From a virus (taxonomy: Duplodnaviria > Caudoviricetes), in the IMG/VR virus record IMGVR_UViG_3300032288_004906, positions 1 to 44,092 of that record: 44,092 nucleotides of DNA. One strand, written 5' to 3'. The position numbers and the translations under genes are program-made. Shown here in pieces: positions 511 through 14,888 of the stretch (its first letter is position 1; every line of letters starts with the position of its first letter). Below the pieces are notes generated by a model. It saw only the letters and a list, made by a program, of their open reading frames with translations, did no database searches and was not told the origin of the DNA.

Positions 511-3500
511 GCGCCGAGGAGAGGGTCATGTCGGACATTGTCTGGACACCAGAACGCGGCCTCACCGAGACTCCGGAAGTTCGGGGGATCTCGTGGAACA
601 ACTTCCTCCTCTCCGACGAGTCATACGCGGGCCGGTGGCGGACGAGTGCCGAGGTCCGGATCACGCCTGACACGGCCCTCCAGAGCACGGTCTTCCTCGC
701 ATGCTGCCGCATCCTCGCCGAGACGGTCGCCACGCTCCCGATCCATATCTACCGACGCCTCCCCGACGGCGGCAAGGAGATCGCGAGCGACATCCCGCTC
801 TACAAGGTGCTGTCGTTCGCTCCGAACTCGTGGCAGACGAAGTACGAGTTCTTCGAGCAACTCGTGATGACGCTGTGCTGCTGGGGGAACTCGTACACGC
901 AGATCAACTCTGGCCGGTACGGCAGCGTCAGCGAACTGATCAACCTGCACCCGAGTCGGATGGACGTCGAGCGTCTGGAGAACGGGCGTCTCCGCTACTC
1001 GTACACGAACCCCGAGACCGGTCGTCTGGAGCGGTACACGCAAGACCAGATCATGCACGTCCGCTGGACGCCGGAGCCGGATGGCATCAAGGGTATGGTG
1101 CCCGTCGAGGTCGCTCGCGAGGCGATTGCACTGGCGCGGGCGTGCGAGATCCACGCGGCGAAGTTCTGGGCCAACAGTGCGAGGCCCGGGATCGTCCTCC
1201 AGACGGACGGCTCTCTGTCGGCAGAGGCGGCAGAGCGACTCCGCGACAATTGGGAGAGATTGCATCGCGGCGTCGACAAGGCGTACAAGACCGCGATCCT
1301 CACCAACGGACTGAAAGCCGAGAGCATCGGCTTCACGGCGGAGCAGTCGCAGTTCGAGTCCACGAGACGCTTCCAGTCCGAGGAGATCGCACGCGTCTTC
1401 CGGCTGCCCATGTCGCTCATTCAGGGGCAGCAGTCTGGCAACCTTGAGACGTCCGGCCGCGAGTTTGTGACCTACACGCTCATGCCGTGGCTCAAGAGGA
1501 TCGAGTCGAGCATCAGCCGCTCGCTGATCTACAACGACGACGTCTTCTTCGCCGAGTTCGACGCCCGTGCCCTGATGCGTGGCGACAGCAACAGCCGCGC
1601 CTCGTACTACTCGACGATGACGGGCCTCGGAATTTTTTCGATTAATGACTGCCGCAGGCTGGAGAACATGCCCCCGCTTGAGCATGGTGACAAGCACTTC
1701 GTCGCCATGAACATGCAGACGCTCGAAGATGCGGTGAAGCCGAAGCCGGATCCGACGGCGGCAATGATGGGCGGGCCCCCTGCCCCAGCCCAAGGCGGCG
1801 TCCCGAGTCTGCCCGAGGTTAAGAAGGGCGAGGCTCCCCGCGAGGCCGAGAAGGGTCAGGTCAGCGAGAAGAAGCCCGAGGCCCTGAAGGAGGGCGACCT
1901 CGTCACGTGGGGCGAAGGAAAGGTCGGCGAAGTGCAGCACGTGATGACGAGCGGCACTCTCGACCTGAAGAGCGGCGAGAAGGTTGAGGTCGAGCCGGGG
2001 GCTCCTGTGGCCCTTGTTCACGACGCGAGCGGAGCCGAGCACGCTGTCGCGGTGGCGAAACTCAAGAAAGAAAGCCGCGCCTTCTGCCCGACCGGAGACG
2101 GCGGAGGCGTCGACAACTCGTGCGGGTCCAAGGAGTCTGCCCCGGAGCGAGATAGGAGAATCCGAGATGAAGTGAAGTCTCTGCCGGAATCGATCAGCGC
2201 GATAAGTGCGAAAGAACTTGGGCTCGCGAACTACTCCCAATTCGTTTCGATCGGAGACTCGAAGAACTCTGACAACCTCCAGATCAAAAGCGACGATGAA
2301 CTGCGTGATGCACTCAAGGGAATGACTGGGCCGAAGGGAAGTCAGGTTCCGCAGTCCGAACTGGTTGGCGCCCATCGAGACCTAAAAGACGGACACCCCG
2401 TTGACCTTCGCATCGACATCAATGCGTTCGACAACTTTGGGACGTATGCCGTAACGGTTCACGAACACGCTGGCGGGAAGGGAGTTGGAAAGCCGATTGG
2501 ATTCGACTCGATCGTGCGGCTTGCTGGCGATGTTCGCTTCTCGTCCGACGAGAAGGTTGCAACCCAGATCGCGATGGGCAAGGGCAAGACACCGATTGCT
2601 ACAGTCAAAGGAAAGTTTGAAGCAAACCGCGACGTCCCCGGCGACATCGACTCATGGATTCCTGTTGGCTTTAATCCGAAGAAGGCTGCGTACTTCTACG
2701 ACAAGCGAACCGGACAGGAGGTCACCGGCGGGGTCGACGCCGTCAGTGTCGGGAACTCTGTCTTCGTCCGCGTCGCCACGTATGGAAAGCGGAAGGCTCA
2801 GAAGCACTATCGCAACGCCTCCTTCTGGGGCCTCGAATCGCGAGCCGACGACTGCGGCAGAGCGGACGGCGGGAAGTTCGGCCCGAAGAACACATGCGCC
2901 GCCGACGATGGCGGGGCGACCGGTGATTCCAAGCCGCCAGAAAAACTGACGCCCGACAGCATTCCGAAGGTGTCCTTCTCGAAAACGGACGATGCCGAGA
3001 CTTTTTTGGCTGCCAGAAACGAGTCGACCAGACCCGAAAACTTCTCCGACATTGATCCCGAGAGGCTGGCGAGAGCGGACAAGTTTATGTCCGAGGACGG
3101 CAAGGCCGGGTGTCTTGTCGACGAAGACGGAGACTTGGGGAACGTCTTCAACAACGGCGGCACAAAAGGCGCTGGAATGGCCGCAGTCTTGACCGCCATC
3201 GAGAGTGGCGCCCAGACACTTGATTGCTACGACGGTTTCCTCCCGGCGAGGTATGCACAGGTCGGGTTCGTCGCGACGGCGAAAATCAAGTGGAACGACG
3301 AGTACGCGCCGCCGAACTGGGACTATACTACGAGAGGCAGACCTGACGTCATCATCATGTCGTATCAGGGAGGCCCGCGAGAAACGATCCGCCAGAGGGT
3401 TGGGTCGTTCTCGATGTACGAGCCACTTCCGGACGACAGGTATGCCGATGACTTCGACGCAGCAAAAAGAACTGCAAGACTTTCGAGCCACCCTCAGCAG

Positions 3501-4016
3501 CGATCTGCTGACGTACTTCGACAAGATGATCGAGAGGGAGGGGGAGGAAGCGGTGTACTCGAAACTCGGTCACCTGAAGGCTCAGGCCGAGTACATCGAG
3601 AGCCTGTAGGCGAACTGATCGCCGAGACGCTCTCGCAGTCCGGCTCTCTTCCGAAGATCGAGGTCCGCGACATCGGCAAGGCGATTGCCTTCTACTCGTC
3701 CGAGGGCGACACGATCTACGTGTCTCCTGACGCCGACCGGCTCGACGACAATGGATGGGTGTCCCAGCCGAACCCGGTGCTGCACGAACTTGCTCACCGG
3801 CACCATCTCCTCGCAGACGCCATCTCGTACCTCGCGCCAAGATCGTTCACGGCCGAGGAGAGGAGCCTCATCGAGTCCGGCGTGTCCCGGTATGCCGCGA
3901 CCAACTCGAAGGAGTTCGTGGCTGAGGTATTGTCTGGATACTGGGCGGGCCGCGAGTTCGCTCCCGAGATCGTGGCCCTTGTTGCTTCCGTGACCAACGG
4001 GAAGGTGACGCTGTGA
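507..4016 (+). CDS. HK97-family portal protein with a ~750-aa C-terminal extension (Pro-rich linker, Tudor/SH3-like domain, unknown domain, GNAT-like domain, HExxH zincin)
   Basis: First ~410 aa carry portal motifs (VFLACCRILAETVATLP, WGNSY, LHPSRM, EEIARVFRLP, SINDCRRLENMPP); extension has two Cys tags (2070, 2835) and HELAH...YAATNSKEFVAE (from 3783). Confidence 0.93.
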   Translation: MSAEERVMSDIVWTPERGLTETPEVRGISWNNFLLSDESYAGRWRTSAEVRITPDTALQSTVFLACCRILAETVATLPIHIYRRLPDGGKEIASDIPLYKVLSFAPNSWQTKYEFFEQLVMTLCCWGNSYTQINSGRYGSVSELINLHPSRMDVERLENGRLRYSYTNPETGRLERYTQDQIMHVRWTPEPDGIKGMVPVEVAREAIALARACEIHAAKFWANSARPGIVLQTDGSLSAEAAERLRDNWERLHRGVDKAYKTAILTNGLKAESIGFTAEQSQFESTRRFQSEEIARVFRLPMSLIQGQQSGNLETSGREFVTYTLMPWLKRIESSISRSLIYNDDVFFAEFDARALMRGDSNSRASYYSTMTGLGIFSINDCRRLENMPPLEHGDKHFVAMNMQTLEDAVKPKPDPTAAMMGGPPAPAQGGVPSLPEVKKGEAPREAEKGQVSEKKPEALKEGDLVTWGEGKVGEVQHVMTSGTLDLKSGEKVEVEPGAPVALVHDASGAEHAVAVAKLKKESRAFCPTGDGGGVDNSCGSKESAPERDRRIRDEVKSLPESISAISAKELGLANYSQFVSIGDSKNSDNLQIKSDDELRDALKGMTGPKGSQVPQSELVGAHRDLKDGHPVDLRIDINAFDNFGTYAVTVHEHAGGKGVGKPIGFDSIVRLAGDVRFSSDEKVATQIAMGKGKTPIATVKGKFEANRDVPGDIDSWIPVGFNPKKAAYFYDKRTGQEVTGGVDAVSVGNSVFVRVATYGKRKAQKHYRNASFWGLESRADDCGRADGGKFGPKNTCAADDGGATGDSKPPEKLTPDSIPKVSFSKTDDAETFLAARNESTRPENFSDIDPERLARADKFMSEDGKAGCLVDEDGDLGNVFNNGGTKGAGMAAVLTAIESGAQTLDCYDGFLPARYAQVGFVATAKIKWNDEYAPPNWDYTTRGRPDVIIMSYQGGPRETIRQRVGSFSMYEPLPDDRYADDFDAAKRTARLSSHPQQRSADVLRQDDREGGGGSGVLETRSPEGSGRVHREPVGELIAETLSQSGSLPKIEVRDIGKAIAFYSSEGDTIYVSPDADRLDDNGWVSQPNPVLHELAHRHHLLADAISYLAPRSFTAEERSLIESGVSRYAATNSKEFVAEVLSGYWAGREFAPEIVALVASVTNGKVTL
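3448..3609 (+). CDS. Candidate overprinted 53-aa helical protein in the +1 frame of the portal gene
   Basis: MTSTQQKELQDFRATLSSDLLTYFDKMIEREGEEAVYSKLGHLKAQAEYIESL reads as an amphipathic helical protein while the portal frame here is linker-like; alternative ATG at 3442. Confidence 0.55.
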   Translation: MTSTQQKELQDFRATLSSDLLTYFDKMIEREGEEAVYSKLGHLKAQAEYIESL

Positions 4017-7000
4017 TTTTCCGAGAGGAAGACTTCTCTGAGGAGGAGTTCCGGAGCGTCGCCCTGCTCGTCGAGCGAAGGGCCGGAGACAACTGCGGTC
4101 GCGACGAGGATGGCAAGTTCGCTCCGAAGAACGATTGCCAAGAGGGCGACGGTGGGACAGCGCAGAAGGCTCCCAAGCAGAAGAAGTCCAAGGAAGATGC
4201 TCCAACCGTCTCCCGGCCACCAGCCGGAGAGCGTGTTTCTTCACTCACCACGCGTTCTCTTTTCGATGGCTCTGAAAAACTTGAACTGCCAAAGGAGCGC
4301 GGCGCCGTCAAGGAAGAGACAATTGCCAGAGCGTTGACGCAGAGGGCAATCACCGCCCACGGCGGCACCCCGATCGACGTCGACAAGCCGATGGACGAGA
4401 CGGACGTCGATGTTCTCTCGGATGCGCTCGCCGACGACATTCAAGGGGCGTACGAGAGGTCTGGCCGACACGCGGGCTGGTACTCGCAGGACGTCGGCGA
4501 CGCGATGGATATTGCGTCACGCCTCCCGGGCAACGAGCAGATTGCGAACGACCCGATTCATAAGTTCGTTTTTGGTTTCGGGATGGGAATCCTGTCTGCG
4601 CAAAACGGCGTCGAGGACAACGCCACTTTCGCGGACGGCTTCTACAGAAACTGGCGAGAGACAGGGAGCCTTGTCGTTCCAGACGAATACAGACACGTCT
4701 TGGGTCGCGGCATCGACACGAGCCACTTCCGCACGATGCAGGAACTCGTCGACCGCAATGGGTGGGATGAGGTCATTCGGTACTTCTCCTCATCGGACAC
4801 GGTGAACGGTATCGCAGCGGACGGCAAAGTGATGCTCCCCGGGTTCGGTGGATTCAAGGTTGCGAAGGAGAGGGTCGACACGGTCGTGCCTCGTTTCGCA
4901 ATTTTTGGCCCGAAGATCGGCCCCTTCACGCACGCCATCGTCAACGGTGACTACGACCACCTTGTCATGGACAGGTGGACGATGCGGCAGGCTGGCGCAC
5001 TGACAGGGACTCTGCTGAAGGAGACTGACCCAGACAAGGTCCGTGGTCACGCCGAGAGATTGCTATCGGCGTCTTCTGGAAACAGGTCCGGCAACTCTCT
5101 TTGGTACGGGCTCCCGAAGGCAGAAGTCGTGTCCAGCCTCAAGCGAACTCTGAAGTCTGGCCGCTTTGACGAACAAGATGTCGGGTGGGAGTTCGTGAGA
5201 CGCGTTCAGTCTGCGTACGCGAATAGCGTAAATTCAGAGACAGGCGGCGGCTTCGGAGACAAGACAGAACTCAACCTCGCTGCGAACAACGCATTCAAGA
5301 GTAAGGTCGAGATGCAGTTGGCTCCCGGAAACGGGACTGTCGCAAACAACGTGCGGCAGGTGTTCGCGGAGGCGACCAGAAAAACTGGCGCGAACAATGT
5401 TCTGGAAGTTCAGGCTCTCGGATGGGTCGACACCCAGAACCTGTGGCAGACGCTTGGCTATCGCCTCAAGAAAGACCCGAACGAAAATACGTTCTCGTCG
5501 GCGTTTGCCGCTCTTCGCGACGGGAGACGAGAGCGGATCACAAGTCTCAAGGAAGAAGCAGAGAAGAAGAGACGCGGGAGGGAGGAGCGTGCTGCTGTTC
5601 CGCCCCCGCCATCCTCTGCGGACACCACACCGATCGACGTATTCGGAGGTGAGTACCAGTCGCTCTTCGACGAGGCAGTTGCGTCACGCGAGTATCAGGA
5701 GTACCTCGTCAGCGAGATTACCGCTCAAATCCGTCGGTCGCAAAACAAGGAGTCCCGCTCCGCCGACTGCGGCAGAGACGAGAGCGGCAAGTTCGGAGAC
5801 AACAACAAGTGCCAGAAGGACGGCACCGGCGTTGCCGACGACCCGATCCGCTCAGGCGGCGACGGCAACAAGGACTGGACTCGCGACGAACTCGCGAGCA
5901 GCCCGCCGTTCAGCGGCGCCGACCGACTCTCGTCACTGACGGTCGCCGCAGGCAATCAGGTCGCCAACAGACTCGAAGGCCTCGGCGTCGGCATGGACGA
6001 GGCGGCGAAGATCGTCGGCTCCGCGAAGGAAGGCGACTCGGTCTACGTACGACCTGCGGTCGAGTTCGCCGCCGACGGCGAGGACGGCGTCCTCGTGCGG
6101 ACCCGGCGGGACGTTGCTGGCGTGAAGGACGGGATGGAGTCGAATTCCGTCCTGATGAGCGTCGGCCCGCCGGGGAAGCCGGACCTTGTCCTGAAGCACC
6201 ACCTGATGAGCGTCGCGGACGCGGTCAAGAGTGACCCGGCCAAGAGACACGCCGCCGCCAGAGAGTTCTTCCGGGTCATGGCGGACAGCGTCTCCGAGGC
6301 GAGGAAGTCCGGCGTCACGAAGGTCGTGTTCAACGCCGCAGGCCGCGCCTCGCAGCCGGACGGCTTTCGCGGGTACACCATCTGGCCCCGGATGGGGTTT
6401 GACGCACCGATCCCCTACAACCTGAAGCAGAAACTGCCGGAAAGCCTCTCGCACGCGAAGACGCTGCTCGACCTGCACTCGACCCGAGAGGGCACGAACT
6501 GGTGGCGAGACAACGGCACCGACGTCGACGTCGTCCTCGACCTCGCCGACCGCAGCAGTCCGCAGAACAAGGCCTTCGACGCGTTCGTGCGGAAACTCCT
6601 CCGCGAGAGTCGCGAGTTGCCTCTCGGATCCGGTGACGAGTGGCTCTCACCCGAAGACCTTCTCAAGTTGGACGAACTCTGGGACGAGATCGACGATCAG
6701 GGCCTGTTCGACGACTACGACGGCGAGTCTCAGGATTTCTCGATTCTCGAAAGTGGAAAGAAGGAGTCACGCTCGTCCGAGTGCGGCCAAGACAACAAGG
6801 GCCGATTCTCGAAGGGCAACGACTGTGCGTCCGAGGGCGGCGCACCTCCGGCGTCCGCGTTCGGACCGCCGACAGACTTCACCGAGAGCGACCACGAGTA
6901 CAAGAAGGATGAACTCCAGAAGCGGCCTCCGTTCAAAGGCGCCGAGAAACTCGAATCTCTGGGGATGCCTGACGAGAAGCAGATGCGGGAGAACCTTACC

Positions 7001-9787
7001 CGCGAGGGGCTGTCGCTCGACGACGCCGTGACGCTGCTCTCCCCAGCCCGCGATGGCGGGCACATGGTCATCACCGTCGAGAACCCGGACGAGCAACTGT
7101 TCGTGCCGCCTCCGCCCGGGACGCCGAGGCCGTTCGTGACGTCGATCGCGGCGAAGGAGATCGACGGCGGTTGGATCAGCAGCGTCACGTCCATGGCGAG
7201 GGACAGCGAAGGCCTCATCCTGAACTACGAGGGATTTCTGGCCGACGACTCTGTGCAGGCGAGTTCGACCGTGACGGCCGCTCGCGAGATGATGTCGAGC
7301 GTCCTCAAGAGTCTCGATGCCGCCGAGTCGATGGGCGTGGCGAAGGTCGTGCTCAACGCCGCTGGTGACGCGAAGAGCACGGCGTTCAAGGGATACCGCA
7401 TCTGGCCGAAGTTCGGCTTCGACGGCGTTATCCCGAAGACCGAGAAGTTCATGCCGCTCTACATCCGGCTCAGGAACCAAGACCTGTCGCCGCGTGCTCA
7501 GGAGGAGAAGAAGCAGGGGCGGCTGACGATTCAGGCTCTCTACGAGACAAAGTTCGGGCAGCAAATGTGGGAGCGGCACGGCGGCGAACTGGCGATGTCG
7601 CTCCGCCCGGGATCGGACACACCCGGATGGCAGCGGTTCAAGAAGATGCAGTCCCGGATCGGTCGTCTGGCCGAGGACCGCAGCCTGACTCTGACGGACG
7701 ACGTCTTCAGCGAGGAGACGCTCGCGTACCTCGACGAGGTGTGGGCGGCAATCCGTGGCGAAGTGGAGCAACGCGCGGCAGACTGCGGGCGAGACGAAAG
7801 CGGCCGGTTCGGATCCGGAAACAAGTGCGCTTCTGCGTCCGGCGAAACGCAGGACGGCAAGTGGGAGATCGAGCCCAATAAGGACGGGACGACATTTCGG
7901 ATCGACGCCGAACCAGCGACGCACGTTGTTCGCCTGAAGGGCGACGACGGCAAGGTCAAGGCGTTCGTGCTGGGGACAGTCGTTGACGACTCATCGCCGC
8001 CGAAGTTCTACGTCGATTACTCTCATGTTGTCGAGAAAGAGCGAGGCAAGGGCGTCTACACGGGACTCCTCAAGTCACTCAGCGATCAGTTCACGGTCGT
8101 CTCAGACTCGCCGCCGAATCTGGCCCTTGAAGCAGAGAAGGCGTACAAGAGACTCGGCGCAGAGAAGGATCCCTACAGTGGCGGCTACATCCTTCACAAA
8201 AAGCCCACCGGCGACTCCCGGGCCTTCTGCGCAACCGGCGAAGGCGGAGGCGTCGACAATTCGTGCGGAGCCGAACCAGCCGCGACACAGCAGCCACCAG
8301 ACACACCGGCATTTAAATCGTGGTTCGGAGAGAGCAAGGTAGTCGACGGTGACGGGAAGCCGCTTGTCGTCTATCACGGAACAGCAAAGCCGTTCACCAC
8401 GTTCGATAAAAAGTTCTCCGCTCAGGGGCTGTTCTGGTTCTCAAGCGACAAAGACAAGATCCTGAGGGGTGAGTCTGGAGCCGTCTCTGGAAAGTCGTTG
8501 ATTCCAGTATTCCTGTCTGCGAAGAAACTTGCCGGGTGGGACGAGTACGACAAATACACGCTCGGTCAGTTGCGAGATCAGGGATACGACGGCATCAAAC
8601 TGGATGATGACTACGTTGTGTTCGAGCCGTCGCAGATCAAGTCTGCCGTAAAGAACAGCGGCGGATACAACCCCAAAAGCAAGAGCATTCACCGCGCCTT
8701 CTGCCCAACCGGCGACGGCGGCGGCATCGACAACTCGTGCGGCGCCAATCCGAAGATGGCCGCAGACAAGGACAGCGTCGGCAGCGGCTCGACGAAGTGG
8801 GGCGGAAAGACTGAGCCGTGGGGCCGTTCGGGCGAGACTGAAATCTGGACACCAGACAAGCCGCTCTTCCCCGGGGCGGAGAATCTTCCCAGCATCAAGA
8901 TCGAGCGACCCAGTGACATCCGCAGTCGTCTTGAGGACAGTCTCAAGGTCACCATCTCGGACGCCGTCTTGGCGTCCGGCGCCGTGATCGCGACTCCAGA
9001 CTCCGCGAAGATCACGCAGCCACGGCTGATCATCACGCCGGACATGGCGAGCGACGGCGTTACAGTGGCGTGGACATGCACAGGCGTCGCCACTGGGAAA
9101 GGATTCAGCAAGGAAGAGGCCGAGTTCGCCGACCCGAAGGGGTCCGTCGTCCGGGCTGCCGAGGCATCGCGGTCGCTCCGGCGGACGGCGAGCGGAACTG
9201 TCCTTCACATGGACGGCTTCTTCATTCACCCGGACTTTCGTGGCAAGGGCATCGCTCTGGAGGCCGTGTCTCGCTCCGTGTCTTCGCCAGTCGTGAGACT
9301 TGAGATGTCTGCGGAGCGGTACGATGCCAGCCATCCCAACCGGCACATGACTGGATACAGGGTGTGGCCCCGCTACGGCTACGACGCGAGGATCAGCGAC
9401 GTGGCCGCTGCCATCCGTGGAGAGATCCCGGCAGAGTTTGCGAAGGCCAAGACTCTTCTCGACATCTACGCAACGCCGGGGGGGCCAGAGTGGTGGGCCG
9501 AGAACGGGAAGTCGATCGGGCTCACGTTCGACATGCGACCACGCAGCAGGAGCCGCGAAATTCTGCTACAATTGCAGGACAAATCGCGATCCAAGCGAAG
9601 GAGCCTTCCCGTGAGCAAGCCAACGGACCGACTCGGTTCCGACTCCGACTACGACGACTCGATCGACGAGGTGTGGGCCGAGATCCAGCAGAAGGGTCTT
9701 TCTGGTCAGTCCCCATCTCAGGAAGACTGGGACCAGTGGGCGAAGGAAGCCAAGGATGGCGATTCCGGAAAAGTACAGCCACATTGA
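4013..9787 (+). CDS. Giant polyvalent head-associated protein (1924 aa): HhH glycosylase-like domain, three paralogous GNAT-like domains, one classical GNAT, ADP-ribosyltransferase-like domain
   Basis: Six Cys tags split it into six domains; motifs GWY...GPKIGPF...MDRW; GYxxWPxxG[FY]D three times; ERGKGVY; FKSWFGESKVVDGDGKPLVVYHGT...GYDGI...VFEPSQIKS; lies between portal and protease. Confidence 0.85.
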   Translation: MIFREEDFSEEEFRSVALLVERRAGDNCGRDEDGKFAPKNDCQEGDGGTAQKAPKQKKSKEDAPTVSRPPAGERVSSLTTRSLFDGSEKLELPKERGAVKEETIARALTQRAITAHGGTPIDVDKPMDETDVDVLSDALADDIQGAYERSGRHAGWYSQDVGDAMDIASRLPGNEQIANDPIHKFVFGFGMGILSAQNGVEDNATFADGFYRNWRETGSLVVPDEYRHVLGRGIDTSHFRTMQELVDRNGWDEVIRYFSSSDTVNGIAADGKVMLPGFGGFKVAKERVDTVVPRFAIFGPKIGPFTHAIVNGDYDHLVMDRWTMRQAGALTGTLLKETDPDKVRGHAERLLSASSGNRSGNSLWYGLPKAEVVSSLKRTLKSGRFDEQDVGWEFVRRVQSAYANSVNSETGGGFGDKTELNLAANNAFKSKVEMQLAPGNGTVANNVRQVFAEATRKTGANNVLEVQALGWVDTQNLWQTLGYRLKKDPNENTFSSAFAALRDGRRERITSLKEEAEKKRRGREERAAVPPPPSSADTTPIDVFGGEYQSLFDEAVASREYQEYLVSEITAQIRRSQNKESRSADCGRDESGKFGDNNKCQKDGTGVADDPIRSGGDGNKDWTRDELASSPPFSGADRLSSLTVAAGNQVANRLEGLGVGMDEAAKIVGSAKEGDSVYVRPAVEFAADGEDGVLVRTRRDVAGVKDGMESNSVLMSVGPPGKPDLVLKHHLMSVADAVKSDPAKRHAAAREFFRVMADSVSEARKSGVTKVVFNAAGRASQPDGFRGYTIWPRMGFDAPIPYNLKQKLPESLSHAKTLLDLHSTREGTNWWRDNGTDVDVVLDLADRSSPQNKAFDAFVRKLLRESRELPLGSGDEWLSPEDLLKLDELWDEIDDQGLFDDYDGESQDFSILESGKKESRSSECGQDNKGRFSKGNDCASEGGAPPASAFGPPTDFTESDHEYKKDELQKRPPFKGAEKLESLGMPDEKQMRENLTREGLSLDDAVTLLSPARDGGHMVITVENPDEQLFVPPPPGTPRPFVTSIAAKEIDGGWISSVTSMARDSEGLILNYEGFLADDSVQASSTVTAAREMMSSVLKSLDAAESMGVAKVVLNAAGDAKSTAFKGYRIWPKFGFDGVIPKTEKFMPLYIRLRNQDLSPRAQEEKKQGRLTIQALYETKFGQQMWERHGGELAMSLRPGSDTPGWQRFKKMQSRIGRLAEDRSLTLTDDVFSEETLAYLDEVWAAIRGEVEQRAADCGRDESGRFGSGNKCASASGETQDGKWEIEPNKDGTTFRIDAEPATHVVRLKGDDGKVKAFVLGTVVDDSSPPKFYVDYSHVVEKERGKGVYTGLLKSLSDQFTVVSDSPPNLALEAEKAYKRLGAEKDPYSGGYILHKKPTGDSRAFCATGEGGGVDNSCGAEPAATQQPPDTPAFKSWFGESKVVDGDGKPLVVYHGTAKPFTTFDKKFSAQGLFWFSSDKDKILRGESGAVSGKSLIPVFLSAKKLAGWDEYDKYTLGQLRDQGYDGIKLDDDYVVFEPSQIKSAVKNSGGYNPKSKSIHRAFCPTGDGGGIDNSCGANPKMAADKDSVGSGSTKWGGKTEPWGRSGETEIWTPDKPLFPGAENLPSIKIERPSDIRSRLEDSLKVTISDAVLASGAVIATPDSAKITQPRLIITPDMASDGVTVAWTCTGVATGKGFSKEEAEFADPKGSVVRAAEASRSLRRTASGTVLHMDGFFIHPDFRGKGIALEAVSRSVSSPVVRLEMSAERYDASHPNRHMTGYRVWPRYGYDARISDVAAAIRGEIPAEFAKAKTLLDIYATPGGPEWWAENGKSIGLTFDMRPRSRSREILLQLQDKSRSKRRSLPVSKPTDRLGSDSDYDDSIDEVWAEIQQKGLSGQSPSQEDWDQWAKEAKDGDSGKVQPH

Positions 9788-12371
9788 TTTCACGCCGCCG
9801 TCGGGCGTCCGCCGCGAGGCCGAGTACGGCCTGAAACTCCGTCGTGAGTACGGTCGCGGCGGTACAGCCGTCGGCATCGCCCGCGCACGCGACCTGTCGA
9901 ACGGCAAGGAGTTGTCTCCGTCGACGCTCCGCCGGATGAAGGCGTACTTCGATCGCCATCAGTCAGACCAGCAGGGCGACGGATTCAATCGCGGCGACAA
10001 GGGCTGGCCGTCGAACGGGTACATCGCCGCCAAACTCTGGGGCGGCTTCCAGAGTGGCTACTCGTGGGCGAAGAAGGTCGTCGAACAGATGAACGCCGCC
10101 GACGAGGAGAGTCGCAGCCTCCGACCCAAGGGATCGACGTTCGGCATCGAGCCGCGTGTCGTCGTTGTGCATGGGCCTCCGGGCAGCGGCAAGGCCGACT
10201 ACGTGCGAGAGCACAAGGGCGAGAACGATGTCGTGTTCGAGTTCGACTCGATCATGAGGGCCCTCTCTGGCGGGCCGAAGAACGACAACCTGATCTCTTA
10301 TTGTCTGGATATTCGGAACCTTATTCTGGAAAAGTCGCTCCGCAAGCCGAAGGTCGACTGCACGTGGGTCATCGCGACGCGAGTGGACGACGATTTCCGG
10401 AGGGCTCTCGGAGACGTGCCGGTGCGGTACGTCGAAATGGAGGCCTCGAAAGACGAGTGCCTTCGTCGTGTCTCGGAAGACCCTTCAAGACAGGACGTCT
10501 TGGATGAGACGAAGGACGTGATCGAGCGGTATTTCAGCGAAAGGAGTTCGCCCGTGGCCTCGAACGTCGAACGTCGGTATCTCGGTGCGTTCTCCTCCGT
10601 CGAGCGGGCCGACCCGCAACTACTCGGCGTCGAGCGTCGGGCTGACCCGGAGACCGGCAAGACGCGGACGTACATCGTCGGGTATGCCGCCAAATTCCAG
10701 ACGGACAGTTTGCTGCTGGGAGATTTCGTCGAGCGGATCGCACCGTCGGCGTTCGAGATCGTCGAGAAGCGAGAGGACTTCGACGGCAAGCCTCTGGAGA
10801 CCCGGTGCCTGTTCAACCACAGTCCGGACCATCTCCTCGGCCGCTTCCCGAACACACTGCGAATGTGGGTCGACGAGGTCGGACTTCGGTACGAATGCCT
10901 GCTGCCAGAGTCGCGTCAAGATTTGGCTGAACTCATCGAAAGAGGCGATTTGCGTGGCTCAAGTTTCAGTTTCGTGGTCGCCGATGGCGGGGAGCGATGG
11001 TCGACCGAGAACGGCCAGTCGATCAGGACCGTGACCCGCATCAAGTCTTTGCTGGATGTTTCCCCAGTCACTTACCCGGCGTACGGCGACGCCACGGTCG
11101 CTGTTGCCAAGCGGTCCTACGAACACTTCATCGCCGAGAAGAAGCAGAAGGTCGAGACGCGTTCGTTCGTGAAGGATAAGGCTGCCTCGATCCGTGCCGA
11201 GACCGAGAAGTTCCTCGCGGAGCGGCGGGCATTCTGCCCGACTGGCGACGGCGGCGGAGTCGACAACTCGTGCGGCGCTGGTGGAGGTAGCGGTCAGGGC
11301 TCCGACGAAAAAGCGGTCTTGCAAAAAAAGGCTGTCACCTCGTCCGGTTCCGCGACCACGGGAGCCGTACTCGGCGCGACTGTCGGGTTGGTCGGAGGCC
11401 TCCCGGGGGTGCTTGTCGGGACAGCGACAGGCGCGATTCTCGGCGCAATCATTGACGCGTTCAAAACTTCCAAGCAGAAAGCCAAGAGCGAGTCTTTAAG
11501 GAAATCCATCGGCGTGTCGGACAAGCAACTTCAAGGCGTTGCCGACTCTCTCATGGGTGGAGAGAAGGTTGACGTGTCGGTGGCAGACGAGAACACGCTG
11601 ATGCTCTCTTCAGAGTCATCAGACTGGTACGCGTGGCTGTCGCCTTCGAGTCAGTTTGGCAGCAAAGAGCCGGGCGCTTCTCTGCATGTCGTCCCACCCG
11701 GCGCGGACGTTGACGTGCCGTCCATGGAAAAGGCGGCGAATGTCATGGGGGCGAAGTTCGTCTCCGTGGAGGCGTGGAGCGACGGGGACGCCAAAATGCT
11801 TGAGTCCAAGGGCTACAAGAGAATTGATGAATCGCCCGGTGGTTTCTCCATAAGCAAGGGCATCTACGAGAAGAAACTCGGAAAGTCCAAGAGGTCGGCC
11901 GAAGTCGCGAAAGAAATTCGCACCTTCCTCTCCGAGAGACGCTCCGGCGACTGCGGCCGGGACGACAGTGGCCGGTTCGGCTCCGGCAACGAATGCCAGC
12001 AGGACGGCGGCAAGTACATGGAGATGCCGAAGGGCGACAAGTCGAAGGCCCAGAAGTTCATCGACGACGCCCGTGAAGGACAACTCCGACGCGGCGGCAA
12101 GGACGGAGGCAAGTCGGACGACGGCGGCGGCGTCCAGACGTGGAGCAAGGGCGACGACTTCCCATGGACCCCAAAGCGTGTCGGCACCGACGAGGGCTAC
12201 ATCCAAGGGACGCATCCGGACGGCAGCACGACGGAGAAGTATCCGTTCAAAGGCGGGAATACCGATGAGGCGTTCCGGCTGATGCGTGAGGAGATCAAGA
12301 AGTTCGGCCGGAAGCGGTCGTCCGAGGTCGTCATCGAGACCCTCCGTTTCCTTCGCGAGAGGGCACGATGA
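9756..12371 (+). CDS. HK97-type prohead protease embedded in an 871-aa multidomain protein (N-terminal helical domain, P-loop kinase-like domain, protease, glycine-zipper domain, small C-terminal domain)
   Basis: Protease motifs IVGYAAKF, FVERIAPSAF, LFNHSPDHLLGR, GSSFSF, LDVSPVTYPAY (~10670-11085); P-loop GPPGSGK at 10173; Cys tags at 11220 and 11934. Confidence 0.9.
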   Translation: MAIPEKYSHIDFTPPSGVRREAEYGLKLRREYGRGGTAVGIARARDLSNGKELSPSTLRRMKAYFDRHQSDQQGDGFNRGDKGWPSNGYIAAKLWGGFQSGYSWAKKVVEQMNAADEESRSLRPKGSTFGIEPRVVVVHGPPGSGKADYVREHKGENDVVFEFDSIMRALSGGPKNDNLISYCLDIRNLILEKSLRKPKVDCTWVIATRVDDDFRRALGDVPVRYVEMEASKDECLRRVSEDPSRQDVLDETKDVIERYFSERSSPVASNVERRYLGAFSSVERADPQLLGVERRADPETGKTRTYIVGYAAKFQTDSLLLGDFVERIAPSAFEIVEKREDFDGKPLETRCLFNHSPDHLLGRFPNTLRMWVDEVGLRYECLLPESRQDLAELIERGDLRGSSFSFVVADGGERWSTENGQSIRTVTRIKSLLDVSPVTYPAYGDATVAVAKRSYEHFIAEKKQKVETRSFVKDKAASIRAETEKFLAERRAFCPTGDGGGVDNSCGAGGGSGQGSDEKAVLQKKAVTSSGSATTGAVLGATVGLVGGLPGVLVGTATGAILGAIIDAFKTSKQKAKSESLRKSIGVSDKQLQGVADSLMGGEKVDVSVADENTLMLSSESSDWYAWLSPSSQFGSKEPGASLHVVPPGADVDVPSMEKAANVMGAKFVSVEAWSDGDAKMLESKGYKRIDESPGGFSISKGIYEKKLGKSKRSAEVAKEIRTFLSERRSGDCGRDDSGRFGSGNECQQDGGKYMEMPKGDKSKAQKFIDDAREGQLRRGGKDGGKSDDGGGVQTWSKGDDFPWTPKRVGTDEGYIQGTHPDGSTTEKYPFKGGNTDEAFRLMREEIKKFGRKRSSEVVIETLRFLRERAR

Positions 12372-13096
12372 CAATCTCGCTGTCCACGCAGTGCAGGATC
12401 GCGAGCATCTACGCGTTCGCTGAATCCCGCAACTGCGGCACGGGATCGGGCGGTTTCCAGAAGGGAAATACGTGTGCGTCAGGCCTCATCGCGGACGCCA
12501 CCAAGGGCGCCGTGAAGGGCGCCGCCAGCGGGGCTACGATTGCAGCCGGGGCGCTGTCTCCGACGCCGCAGCACATCGCTGCCGGTGCTGGCGTCGGCGC
12601 TGCCGTCGGACTCGTGAAAGGTATCCGCGACAACCGGCTCCGGCCGACGCGGGTGCTCAAGAAGATTGAGTCGATCGGCTCGTCTGAGGAGAAGGTCGCG
12701 GCCTTGGTCGAGAAACTCGGCGGCACCCCGAAGTCGTCGGCCGACGTCACCGGAAAGAAACTTGTCCTGACCATCCGGGACAAGGAAGGCAAGAAGTCCT
12801 TCCACGTCGAGATGGATGAAGATGAGATCGTCGTCTATCCACGCAAGGCCACGGGGCAACTCAGCGGCTCCGAGATCGAGCGGGTCAAGGAGATTGCCTC
12901 CGAGGCCGCTGGCAAGACGGTCGCTGTCGTCGTGAAGGAAAACTCGAAGGCCTACTCAGCAAAACTCGTGAAGAGTGGTTTCAAGGTCGCCGCAAACGCC
13001 GCAGGCGAACTGATCGCGTCGACGGTTGTTCCTCCAGTGGCGGACACCGTCGTCGGAGACCTCATCTATGCGGCGAAAAAAGCCAGAGGACGGTAA
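12368..13096 (+). CDS. Cys-tagged glycine-zipper protein, putative head cargo
   Basis: ESR|NCGTGSGGFQKGNTC tag at 12422, then GxxxG-rich hydrophobic segments; resembles the glycine-zipper domain in the protease. Confidence 0.7.
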   Translation: MTISLSTQCRIASIYAFAESRNCGTGSGGFQKGNTCASGLIADATKGAVKGAASGATIAAGALSPTPQHIAAGAGVGAAVGLVKGIRDNRLRPTRVLKKIESIGSSEEKVAALVEKLGGTPKSSADVTGKKLVLTIRDKEGKKSFHVEMDEDEIVVYPRKATGQLSGSEIERVKEIASEAAGKTVAVVVKENSKAYSAKLVKSGFKVAANAAGELIASTVVPPVADTVVGDLIYAAKKARGR

Positions 13097-13403: not shown

Positions 13404-14888
13404 ATGGAAGCCTCCGCCAAGATCAAGTCTCTCCTCGACGAACTGGCTGCCGTCCTCGCCGAGATGGGCGCCCTTCAGGATGAGATGCCCGCAGAGCGGG
13501 AGATGCCCGTCGCCGAGGAGATGAGCGACGAGGAGAAGGAGGAGAAGGGTTACAAGCCCGAAGAGTCCGAGGTCGAGGACACCGAGGCGATGCCGGGTGT
13601 CGACGAGGAGGACGAGGAGAAGGAGCGGAAACTCCGCTGCCTCTGCGAGCGGGCCGAGAAACTCCGCGACAAGATCAAGTTCTACGAGGGCGTGGCGGCG
13701 AAGGAACTCGAACTCCGCACCGTTCTCGACAAGGCCACTCCGGCTTCGGAAGTGGCGTCCATTCGTCCCGCCACCAAGGAGGCCCGTTCCGTGTCGATCT
13801 ACCACAACCTGCCGGGTGCTGGTCGCCTGAAGAATTTCCGTGGCGCGAACGCCGAAGAGCGTGCTTACCGTGCCGGTCAGTATTTCCGTGCCACGCTGCT
13901 CGGCGACAAGAACGCCGCTCGGTGGTGTGCTGACCACGGCGTCGAGAGCCGTGCCCAGAACGAGGGCGTCAACTCGCAGGGCGGAATTTTCGTGCAGGAC
14001 GAAGTCCTGAACGAGATCATCGTCTTGGTCGAGGAATACGGTGCGTTCCCGAAGAACGCCCGCAACGTCCAGATGAAGTCTGACACCCTCATCGTCCCCC
14101 GCCGGACCGGTGGCCTGAAGGCTTACTTCGTCGGCGAGAACACCAGCGTCACGGACAGTGATGCGTCGTGGGATCGCGTGCAACTCGTCGCCAAGAAGGT
14201 GGCGGTCGCCAACCGGATGTCGAGCGAGATTCTGGAGGACAGCGTCCTGAATCTGGCCGACTACATCACGGGCGAGGTGGCTCGCTCGCTGGCCGAGTTG
14301 ATCGACACCGTGGGCTTCGTGGGCACGGGCTCCGGGGACCACGGCGGCATCATCGGTGCTTGCACGAAGATCGTCGACGGCAACCACAACGCGTCGGTCG
14401 TGACGGCTGCCGCCGGTAACACCGGTGCCCAGACGCTCGACGTCGACGACCTGATCGCCGCCGCCGGACGGCTCCCGCTGTTCGCTCGGGCGAATGCTCG
14501 CTGGTTCTGCTCGCCCGCCGTCTTCGCGGCCAGCGTGCAGCGGCTCGGCCTCGTGAACAACGTCGGCCTCGCCGGTGGGAACACGGCTGCGAACCTCGCG
14601 GCCGGTGCCGAACTGCGGCTGCTTGGCTACCCCGTGGAGTTCGTCCACGTGATGCCCAGCACCGTCGGTGCCGACCCGGGCAAGGTGCTGTTCCTCTTCG
14701 GCGACCTGTCGATGGGCTCGATGTACGCGACTCGTCGCGGCCTCACCCTGAAGACCTCGACGGACCGCTACGCGGAACTTGACCAGACCCTGATCGTCGC
14801 CACCAGCCGCTTCGACTGCGTCACGCACGACTGCGGCGACAACTCGAAGGCTGGTCCGATCGTGGCCCTCAAGACCGCTGCTTCTTGA
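13404..14888 (+). CDS. Major capsid protein, HK97 fold, with N-terminal delta (scaffold) domain
   Basis: Acidic coiled-coil N-terminus, then VESR|AQNEGVNSQGGIFV, SSEILEDS, FVGTGSG, LLGYPV, FGDLS. Confidence 0.95.
   Translation: MEASAKIKSLLDELAAVLAEMGALQDEMPAEREMPVAEEMSDEEKEEKGYKPEESEVEDTEAMPGVDEEDEEKERKLRCLCERAEKLRDKIKFYEGVAAKELELRTVLDKATPASEVASIRPATKEARSVSIYHNLPGAGRLKNFRGANAEERAYRAGQYFRATLLGDKNAARWCADHGVESRAQNEGVNSQGGIFVQDEVLNEIIVLVEEYGAFPKNARNVQMKSDTLIVPRRTGGLKAYFVGENTSVTDSDASWDRVQLVAKKVAVANRMSSEILEDSVLNLADYITGEVARSLAELIDTVGFVGTGSGDHGGIIGACTKIVDGNHNASVVTAAAGNTGAQTLDVDDLIAAAGRLPLFARANARWFCSPAVFAASVQRLGLVNNVGLAGGNTAANLAAGAELRLLGYPVEFVHVMPSTVGADPGKVLFLFGDLSMGSMYATRRGLTLKTSTDRYAELDQTLIVATSRFDCVTHDCGDNSKAGPIVALKTAAS

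Follow-up and report, generated by a model that had tools for sequence, protein, structure and literature searches.

Cleavage of head proteins at short motifs has been described for several phages, and the statements below hold as far as the accessible passages of the cited papers go. The HK97 capsid protein is cut at K103/S104 (PMC10275583), and the scaffold domain of T5 pb11 is removed (PMC5292684). One motif serves capsid, portal and internal proteins alike in two other systems, namely L/I-x-E for T4 gp21 (PMC9026906) and A-x-E for SPN3US gp245 (PMC10052503). Additionally, Iyer et al. 2017 described phage-type polyvalent proteins, with a likely release by peptidases (PMC5512222), and a phi24B preprint reported a polyvalent protein in virions, with no site code of the kind considered here in its accessible passages (10.64898/2026.04.10.717836).

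The locus of this study lies in a window of 44,092 nucleotides (the whole stretch of DNA analysed; a linear virus record with a completeness estimate of 45%), in which Cys-Gly tags follow Arg-containing sites in the portal, cargo, protease and 242-aa ORFs. Judging from sequence, we put the probability at roughly 0.8 that the S78 prohead protease of this virus matures the capsid and also splits the polyvalent cargo proteins into tag-led modules.

As in HK97 and T5 maturation, the portal, protease and capsid belong to the same families and follow the same gene order, with a basic-residue cut (here predicted) at the homologous position; unlike in those phages, the portal and protease are parts of long polyproteins with tag-led passengers, and two further ORFs carry sites. 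With T4 gp21 and SPN3US gp245, a single short motif serves capsid, portal and later-ejected internal proteins, and the motif of the window would do likewise. However, gp21 cuts after Glu, whereas the protease of the window is of the S78 family with a conserved P1 Arg. The targeting peptide of T4 (IPI-III, Alt) precedes the cut and is removed, whereas the tag of the window stands on the C-terminal side of the site and, for the most part, within ORFs; a possible parallel lies in the short leaders that the two unfused ORFs carry, as candidate targeting peptides. Cuts in SPN3US yield N-terminal propeptides, whereas in the window one chain has such sites between as many as six modules. The polyvalent proteins of PMC5512222 resemble the present ones in the ART-PolyVal, GNAT-like and metallopeptidase-like modules of head-region ORFs, in the portal fusions and in the proposed domain release by peptidases, but the accessible passages propose embedded metallopeptidases or C-terminal assemblin-like domains for this role and hold no cleavage motif or linker tag. 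Several unrelated effector-type domains, the mark of a polyvalent protein, were found in one chain between the portal and capsid genes of the window.

Within the open literature (subscription journals being mostly outside the coverage), neither the tag nor a switching site code was found to be described. The accessible passages of the RcGTA structure paper (PMC7296036) contain none on capsid cleavage, and those of the ArV2 paper (PMC4205034) contain nothing on a site code or tag. The principle is already known from T4 and SPN3US; for a portable tag whose code switches, no published account was found.

Head region and predicted capsid maturation site

Within the window, the terminase end is followed by the portal ORF, the 1924-aa ORF, the prohead-protease ORF, the 242-aa ORF and the capsid gene (Table 1), with head-tail connector, tail-completion and tail-chaperone genes 3' of the capsid gene. 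The features of an HK97-type head module are present, including an HK97-fold capsid protein with an N-terminal helical scaffold, an upstream S78 protease and a basic junction residue. A search of 50,697 annotated phage records with the capsid protein gave only 4 weak matches (Streptococcus phage); the same records held no match to the tags, and neither tag was found in any cultured phage. No family for the Cys-Gly tags was found in Pfam, NCBIfam or PHROG, and a tag scan of the genome collection returned 5 loci: two were short MAG contigs, two were contigs of phage-like character within MAGs, and the fifth was a chance match. For one module, the ESM Atlas returned only unnamed clusters (at most 0.86). 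No RNA data set was listed as a holder of the sequence, which says nothing about expression. Elsewhere in the window, the phage carries a histone-deacetylase-family gene (PF00850, 35926-36786) and a GDP-mannose 4,6-dehydratase gene (PF16363, 42392-43414).

Table 1. Head-region features of the window; positions in nucleotides, with arrows marking the P1-P1' junction
Feature	Position	Strand	Basis
HK97 portal polyprotein, 1169 aa	507..4016	+	PF04860, TIGR01537; portal domain residues 63-387
EVR↓G, candidate leader-removal site before portal domain	576..587	+	Arg in 14/15 homologous stretches
ESR↓A + CPTG-type tag, portal ORF	2070..2123	+	sequence
ESR↓A + CGR-type tag, portal ORF	2835..2897	+	sequence
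Polyvalent cargo polyprotein, 1924 aa, six tag-led modules	4013..9787	+	PF18760, PF00583
ERR↓A + CGR-type tag, cargo ORF	4073..4138	+	sequence
ESR↓S + CGR-type tag, cargo ORF	5750..5812	+	sequence
ESR↓S + CGR-type tag, cargo ORF	6764..6826	+	sequence
EQR↓A + CGR-type tag, cargo ORF	7766..7828	+	sequence
DSR↓A + CPTG-type tag before ART-PolyVal module, cargo ORF	8213..8266	+	sequence
IHR↓A + CPTG-type tag, cargo ORF	8687..8740	+	sequence
Prohead-protease polyprotein, 871 aa	9756..12371	+	PF04586, TIGR01543, PF13671
Untagged ESR↓S between first two domains of protease ORF	10107..10118	+	Arg 31/41
ERR↓A directly before protease domain, candidate self-release site	10632..10643	+	Arg in 49/49 homologous stretches
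AKR↓S after protease domain	11106-11117	+	sequence
ERR↓A + CPTG-type tag, protease ORF	11220..11273	+	sequence
ERR↓S + CGR-type tag, protease ORF	11934..11996	+	sequence
Single-module protein, 242 aa	12368..13096	+	21-residue leader, tag, glycine-zipper-like stretch
ESR↓N, 242-aa ORF	12422-12433	+	sequence
CGTG-type tag, 242-aa ORF	12431-12472	+	sequence
Capsid ORF	13404-14888	+	494 aa; PF05065 at residues 193-473, TIGR01554
Capsid delta (scaffold) domain, residues 1-183	13404..13952	+	model: long helices, low-confidence linkers
Further motif copies in delta domain	EAR↓S 13779, EER↓A 13854	+	sequence
Predicted capsid maturation site E181-S-R183↓A184	13944..13955	+	alignment to mature-chain starts
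Predicted mature HK97-fold capsid protein, 311 aa	13953..14888	+	PF05065; Foldseek

The preliminary description of this DNA had placed VESR↓AQNEG at capsid residues 180-188 and predicted a mature protein of 311 aa; the string was found in the capsid ORF at that place, and residues 184-494 do amount to 311 aa. The R183↓A184 junction corresponds to EGK↓A in an alignment with the RcGTA capsid protein and, in a profile search, to HLK↓A of DT57C (K159↓A160), EVR↓A of Mycofy1 and ETR↓A of cf-PICI; the aligned Lys/Arg-Ala junctions lie at or near the mature-chain starts of the RcGTA, T5-like and Mycofy1 capsids. Counted from the aligned Ala, 298 (RcGTA), 299 (DT57C), 294 (Mycofy1) and 295 (cf-PICI) residues are left, and the longest modelled chains among those listed have 297, 296, 293 and 285 residues, respectively, a modelled chain length in a structure not being proof of a cut. 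The T5 mature chain, which has 299 residues in its deposited and modelled form, from a precursor of 458, fits a start at residue 160.

In the AlphaFold model of the capsid protein (mean pLDDT 72.6), the part that precedes the site contains long helices and disordered linkers, and the best Foldseek match of the model is the RcGTA capsid 6tb9 (E 5e-15). Of 123 contig groups, in a set biased by the two queries used, 72 have Arg and 50 have Lys in the aligned capsid column, the 1 remaining row being misaligned. From these alignments, R183↓A184 is very probably the capsid maturation site; by itself, this site is ordinary HK97 biology.

Polyproteins, site motif and tags

In the portal ORF, the portal domain precedes two tag-led modules, and the C-terminus is formed by an HExxH metallopeptidase-like module (about 3579-4013) with weak Peptidase_M90 and M91 matches. 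The cargo polyprotein comprises one unassigned module, three paralogous modules (BLASTP E 7e-20 to 3e-5; one with a GNAT match), a further GNAT-like module and an ART-PolyVal module; the PF18760 match was above the cut-off, and the PF00583 match was obtained for the whole ORF. Each paralogous module is followed by an acidic stretch with a similar Asp-Glu-Val/Leu-Trp helix (6614-6772, 7682-7774 and 9608-9784), and two of the three, with E-x-R on both sides, could be excised spacers or inhibitors.

The protease ORF consists of an N-terminal domain, a P-loop domain, the S78 protease (10656-11129) and two tag-led modules. The His355 and Ser403 motifs, which we take to be catalytic, are intact in the window; both occur in 118 of 119 protease homologues, and E-x-R-[AST] likewise stands directly before the protease domain in 118/119. 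The 242-aa protein has homologues in all 20 of the tag-rich relatives checked. Short amphipathic stretches precede sites in the protease and 242-aa ORFs (11118-11228, 11895-11942, 12318-12368 and 12368-12430), end in Phe-Leu-x-Glu-Arg-Arg or Phe-Ala-Glu-Ser-Arg and recur in relatives; they are candidate loading leaders. Two tag-led modules (11283-11885 and 12473-13093) start with glycine-zipper-like stretches (weak PF13436 matches), and these starts are possibly membrane-inserting.

The 11 tag-linked sites of the preliminary description, which had been read as E-x-R↓A/S, are all present (the P3 codon of each opens its row in Table 1). Arg is found in 11/11 and E-x-R in 9/11, but DSR↓A and IHR↓A lack the P3 Glu and one P1' residue is Asn. 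E-x-R ends 1-4 residues upstream of 9/11 tags versus 3.0% of random positions, and Arg lies 1-4 residues upstream of 11/11 tags versus 24%. A test of E-x-R-[AS] at domain boundaries against shuffled proteins had been suggested as a check; counted by ORF, the motif was enriched, with 19 copies in five head ORFs versus 4.2 expected (none of 1000 shuffles reached 19) and 1 copy in 16 other ORFs versus 4.5 expected. Three control patterns (E-x-K-[AS], D-x-R-[AS], R-x-E-[AS]) showed no enrichment in these head ORFs, with 1, 3 and 6 copies versus about 4. Although mature capsid domains were expected to be poor in the motif, they showed no depletion (7 observed versus 5.7 expected); therefore, the motif alone does not predict a cut, and accessibility has to be assumed, such that folding must protect most other copies.

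Four untagged sites claimed at domain ends are likewise present at 10107, 5582, 7673 and 11154, but they are unevenly conserved: counted only where the alignment register was clear, Arg occurs in 31/41 homologous stretches at 10107, in 18/22 at 7673 (with mixed P1') and in 38/97 at 11154, and the site at 5582 has only 2 homologues. Two better-conserved sites were absent from that description, namely EVR↓G before the portal domain and ERR↓A before the protease domain. Three tag types (CPTG, CGR and CGTG) occur in the window, and tag copies have diverged at synonymous sites (23/75 and 41/137 shared codons).

The motif before the tags could instead be only a docking signal for the protease or a scaffold, with the cargo loaded whole and the capsid site real. 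Targeting and processing are separable in T4, where a capsid-targeting sequence with Asp at position 10 still allows loading but no longer cutting (PMC9026906), and the N4 virion RNA polymerase is packaged uncut (PMC5512222), both as given in the accessible passages. However, the present proteins retain the P1 residue and a small P1' at almost all internal module boundaries, even where fusion to portal or protease would already load them, and we consider pure docking quite improbable.

Tag-linked residue and head junction across lineages

Among the 119 protease-ORF homologues, Arg lies 1-4 residues upstream in 153/153 distinct tag contexts (background 23.6%) and E-x-R in 132/153 (background 4.8%), these contexts being partly homologous to one another and not independent. 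P1' in the 153 contexts is Gly (66), Asp (46), Ala (28), Asn (7), Ser (5) or Glu (1). One specificity, E-x-R↓A/S, had been claimed for both capsid and cargo; its unity is favored by junctions that switch together across phages, but P1' is broader than Ala or Ser, and the rule appears closer to E-x-R followed by a small or acidic residue. Payload modules vary between relatives and are shuffled, and the site-tag unit persists.

The same tags were found in phages with other head modules by scans for the tag alone and for tags without a preceding Arg, and the junction classes matching the tag-preceding residue are Arg, Lys, Asn, Glu, Tyr/Phe and Leu. The Arg/Lys comparison considered 57 contig groups in which an HK97 capsid gene occurs together with one or more tags, with a total of 238 tags. 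Capsid-Arg groups carry 190 tags with Arg, 1 with Lys, 5 with both and 14 with neither nearby; capsid-Lys groups carry 24 with Lys, 2 with Arg and 2 with both. By group, 53 of the 57 agree, 3 tie and 1 disagrees, the exception being capsid-Arg group L277 with a Lys-class tag; without the 5 groups selected for Lys tags, 48/52 agree. Lys appears in three separate parts of the capsid tree (56 rows, one short row being left out), and a phylogenetically independent Arg/Lys test was underpowered (3 changes, 2 independent pairs on supported branches, sign test p 0.5). The delta domains also differ, as 27 of Arg type hold 58 copies of E-x-R-[ASG] versus 12.7 expected and 21 of Lys type hold 2 versus 4.1 expected. 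No tag was seen in the fetched DNA of 66/123 groups with such a capsid gene. Lys tags also occur with XkdF-type proteases, and one Lys-type phage encodes MuF, an intein-like stretch and a domain of type IB topoisomerase in a single polyprotein (L099:4830-9809).

Each further class is one lineage, read partly by eye. The Asn class was read from 28 groups whose capsid is DUF6260-like, and a DUF2213-like protease occurs in most of these as well; 79/79 tags follow Asn, and the capsid junction at the fold start is N↓A or N↓D in 18/18 groups where it was located (10/28 were not located). In these phages, where an encapsulin-like DUF6260 capsid is combined with a DUF2213-like protease (L484:6912-10939, 28 groups), a single genome carries up to 11 tags. 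In the Glu class, tags follow LLE or IRE and the capsid has IQE↓S or LQE↓A (PF25209-type phages); another Glu phage, L252, has 2 Glu tags and 1 Asn tag. In the Tyr/Phe class, tags follow xxY or xxF and the capsid has RAY↓A or RTY↓A (Mu-type portal phages). A Mu-type protease was sought in five tag-bearing records and in contig G006 and was found in none; reading G006 itself yielded a protease candidate with no family match. In the Leu class, 6/6 tags follow L-x-L, and the putative protease-scaffold protein of that phage group contains L-x-L↓S/A. Tags of a lambda-portal group mostly follow E-x-L/F, with a similar string, found by eye, before the putative protease domain.

Within the non-Arg scans, the P1 residue is the same in 401 of 424 tag pairs from one genome, whereas shuffles gave a mean of 288 and a maximum of 340 (55 multi-tag groups of 154). 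Cysteine-free tags (HLPGxHDQ, YDPSQARDESGKW) were observed in L105, L115, L116, L145, L279, L306, L312 and L483; these also follow their own phage's junction residue, and the tag family is therefore wider than the three types of the window. Overall, the tag-linked residue agrees with the head junction in every class examined, and this is the chief ground for assigning the cut to the maturation protease.

This agreement bears on two other explanations. The polyproteins could be cut by the embedded zincin-like metallopeptidase at the C-terminus of the portal ORF or by a host trypsin-like protease, as an HExxH module is present there and such processing of polyvalent proteins was proposed by Iyer et al. 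2017, in the accessible passages (PMC5512222). However, the tag-linked residue tracks the head module across the Arg, Lys, Asn, Glu, Tyr/Phe and Leu classes, and a homologue of the HExxH module was seen in only 4/20 tag-rich relatives, the loci being partial; cutting by these enzymes is thus highly improbable in our estimate. Alternatively, the upstream residues could be passengers of a duplicated tag-plus-flank cassette and the capsid match a sign of shared ancestry, consistent with the shuffling of modules among relatives and the few independent switches on the tree. Against this, the residue within one genome is common to three tag types, to untagged boundaries and to the capsid junction, while flanks and synonymous positions differ, and the delta domain, which is outside any cassette, shows a parallel switch in motif content. 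We hold such passenger status to be very unlikely as well, and retain cleavage by the prohead protease as the preferred reading.

Proposed processing and delivery of the cargo

The prohead protease would act on flexible linkers, recognising Glu-x-Arg with a small or acidic residue at P1', and by the same rule would remove the capsid scaffold at R183↓A184 and cut four head-region multidomain proteins into tag-led modules. The C-terminal part of the portal and the protease lie inside the prohead. Payloads fused behind them would enter the prohead together with them, and the two unfused ORFs would have to be addressed in another way, probably through their short leaders or through the tag. During maturation, the protease would free itself, trim the portal leader, degrade the delta domain and release the modules. 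The GNAT-like, ADP-ribosyltransferase-like, metallopeptidase-like and other modules would then stay inside and be delivered with the DNA, possibly acting as early host-modifying or counter-defence proteins.

The tag would stay on the cargo because it lies after the cut. Its partner would more likely be something invariant than the capsid shell, since the tag is conserved across differing capsid, portal and protease families; candidates are the packaged DNA, other tags (via its two cysteines) or a host factor. A role of the tag in retention or ejection is the weakest step of this proposal and is conceivable rather than probable. The protease itself would not need the tag, as the tag lies after the cut, is absent at the capsid site and was unseen in those 66/123 groups. 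The Gly, Asp, Gly and aromatic spacing of the CGR-type tag (5759-5812) was also observed in residues 1-12 of some predicted mature capsid N-arms (e.g., L304), a likeness that may be coincidence. More tentatively, and on balance doubtfully, the site and tag together might form a portable cut-and-deliver cassette of phages with unrelated heads, in which the phage's own protease releases any protein placed behind the unit and the Cys-Gly tag, exposed by the cut, both keeps this cargo in the head and routes it into the cell along with the DNA. If this were true, the residue before the tag would read out the specificity of head proteases that are as yet uncharacterised (e.g., Asn for DUF2213, Lys for the XkdF-type).

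The link to the tags would provide a sequence-readable prediction of how polyvalent proteins are cut and by which protease. It would also extend T4-style cargo processing to HK97-type heads and, for several head-protease families that are still unstudied, yield specificities open to testing. Should the tag serve as a signal for retention or delivery, it would offer a general handle on phage injection of counter-defence proteins.
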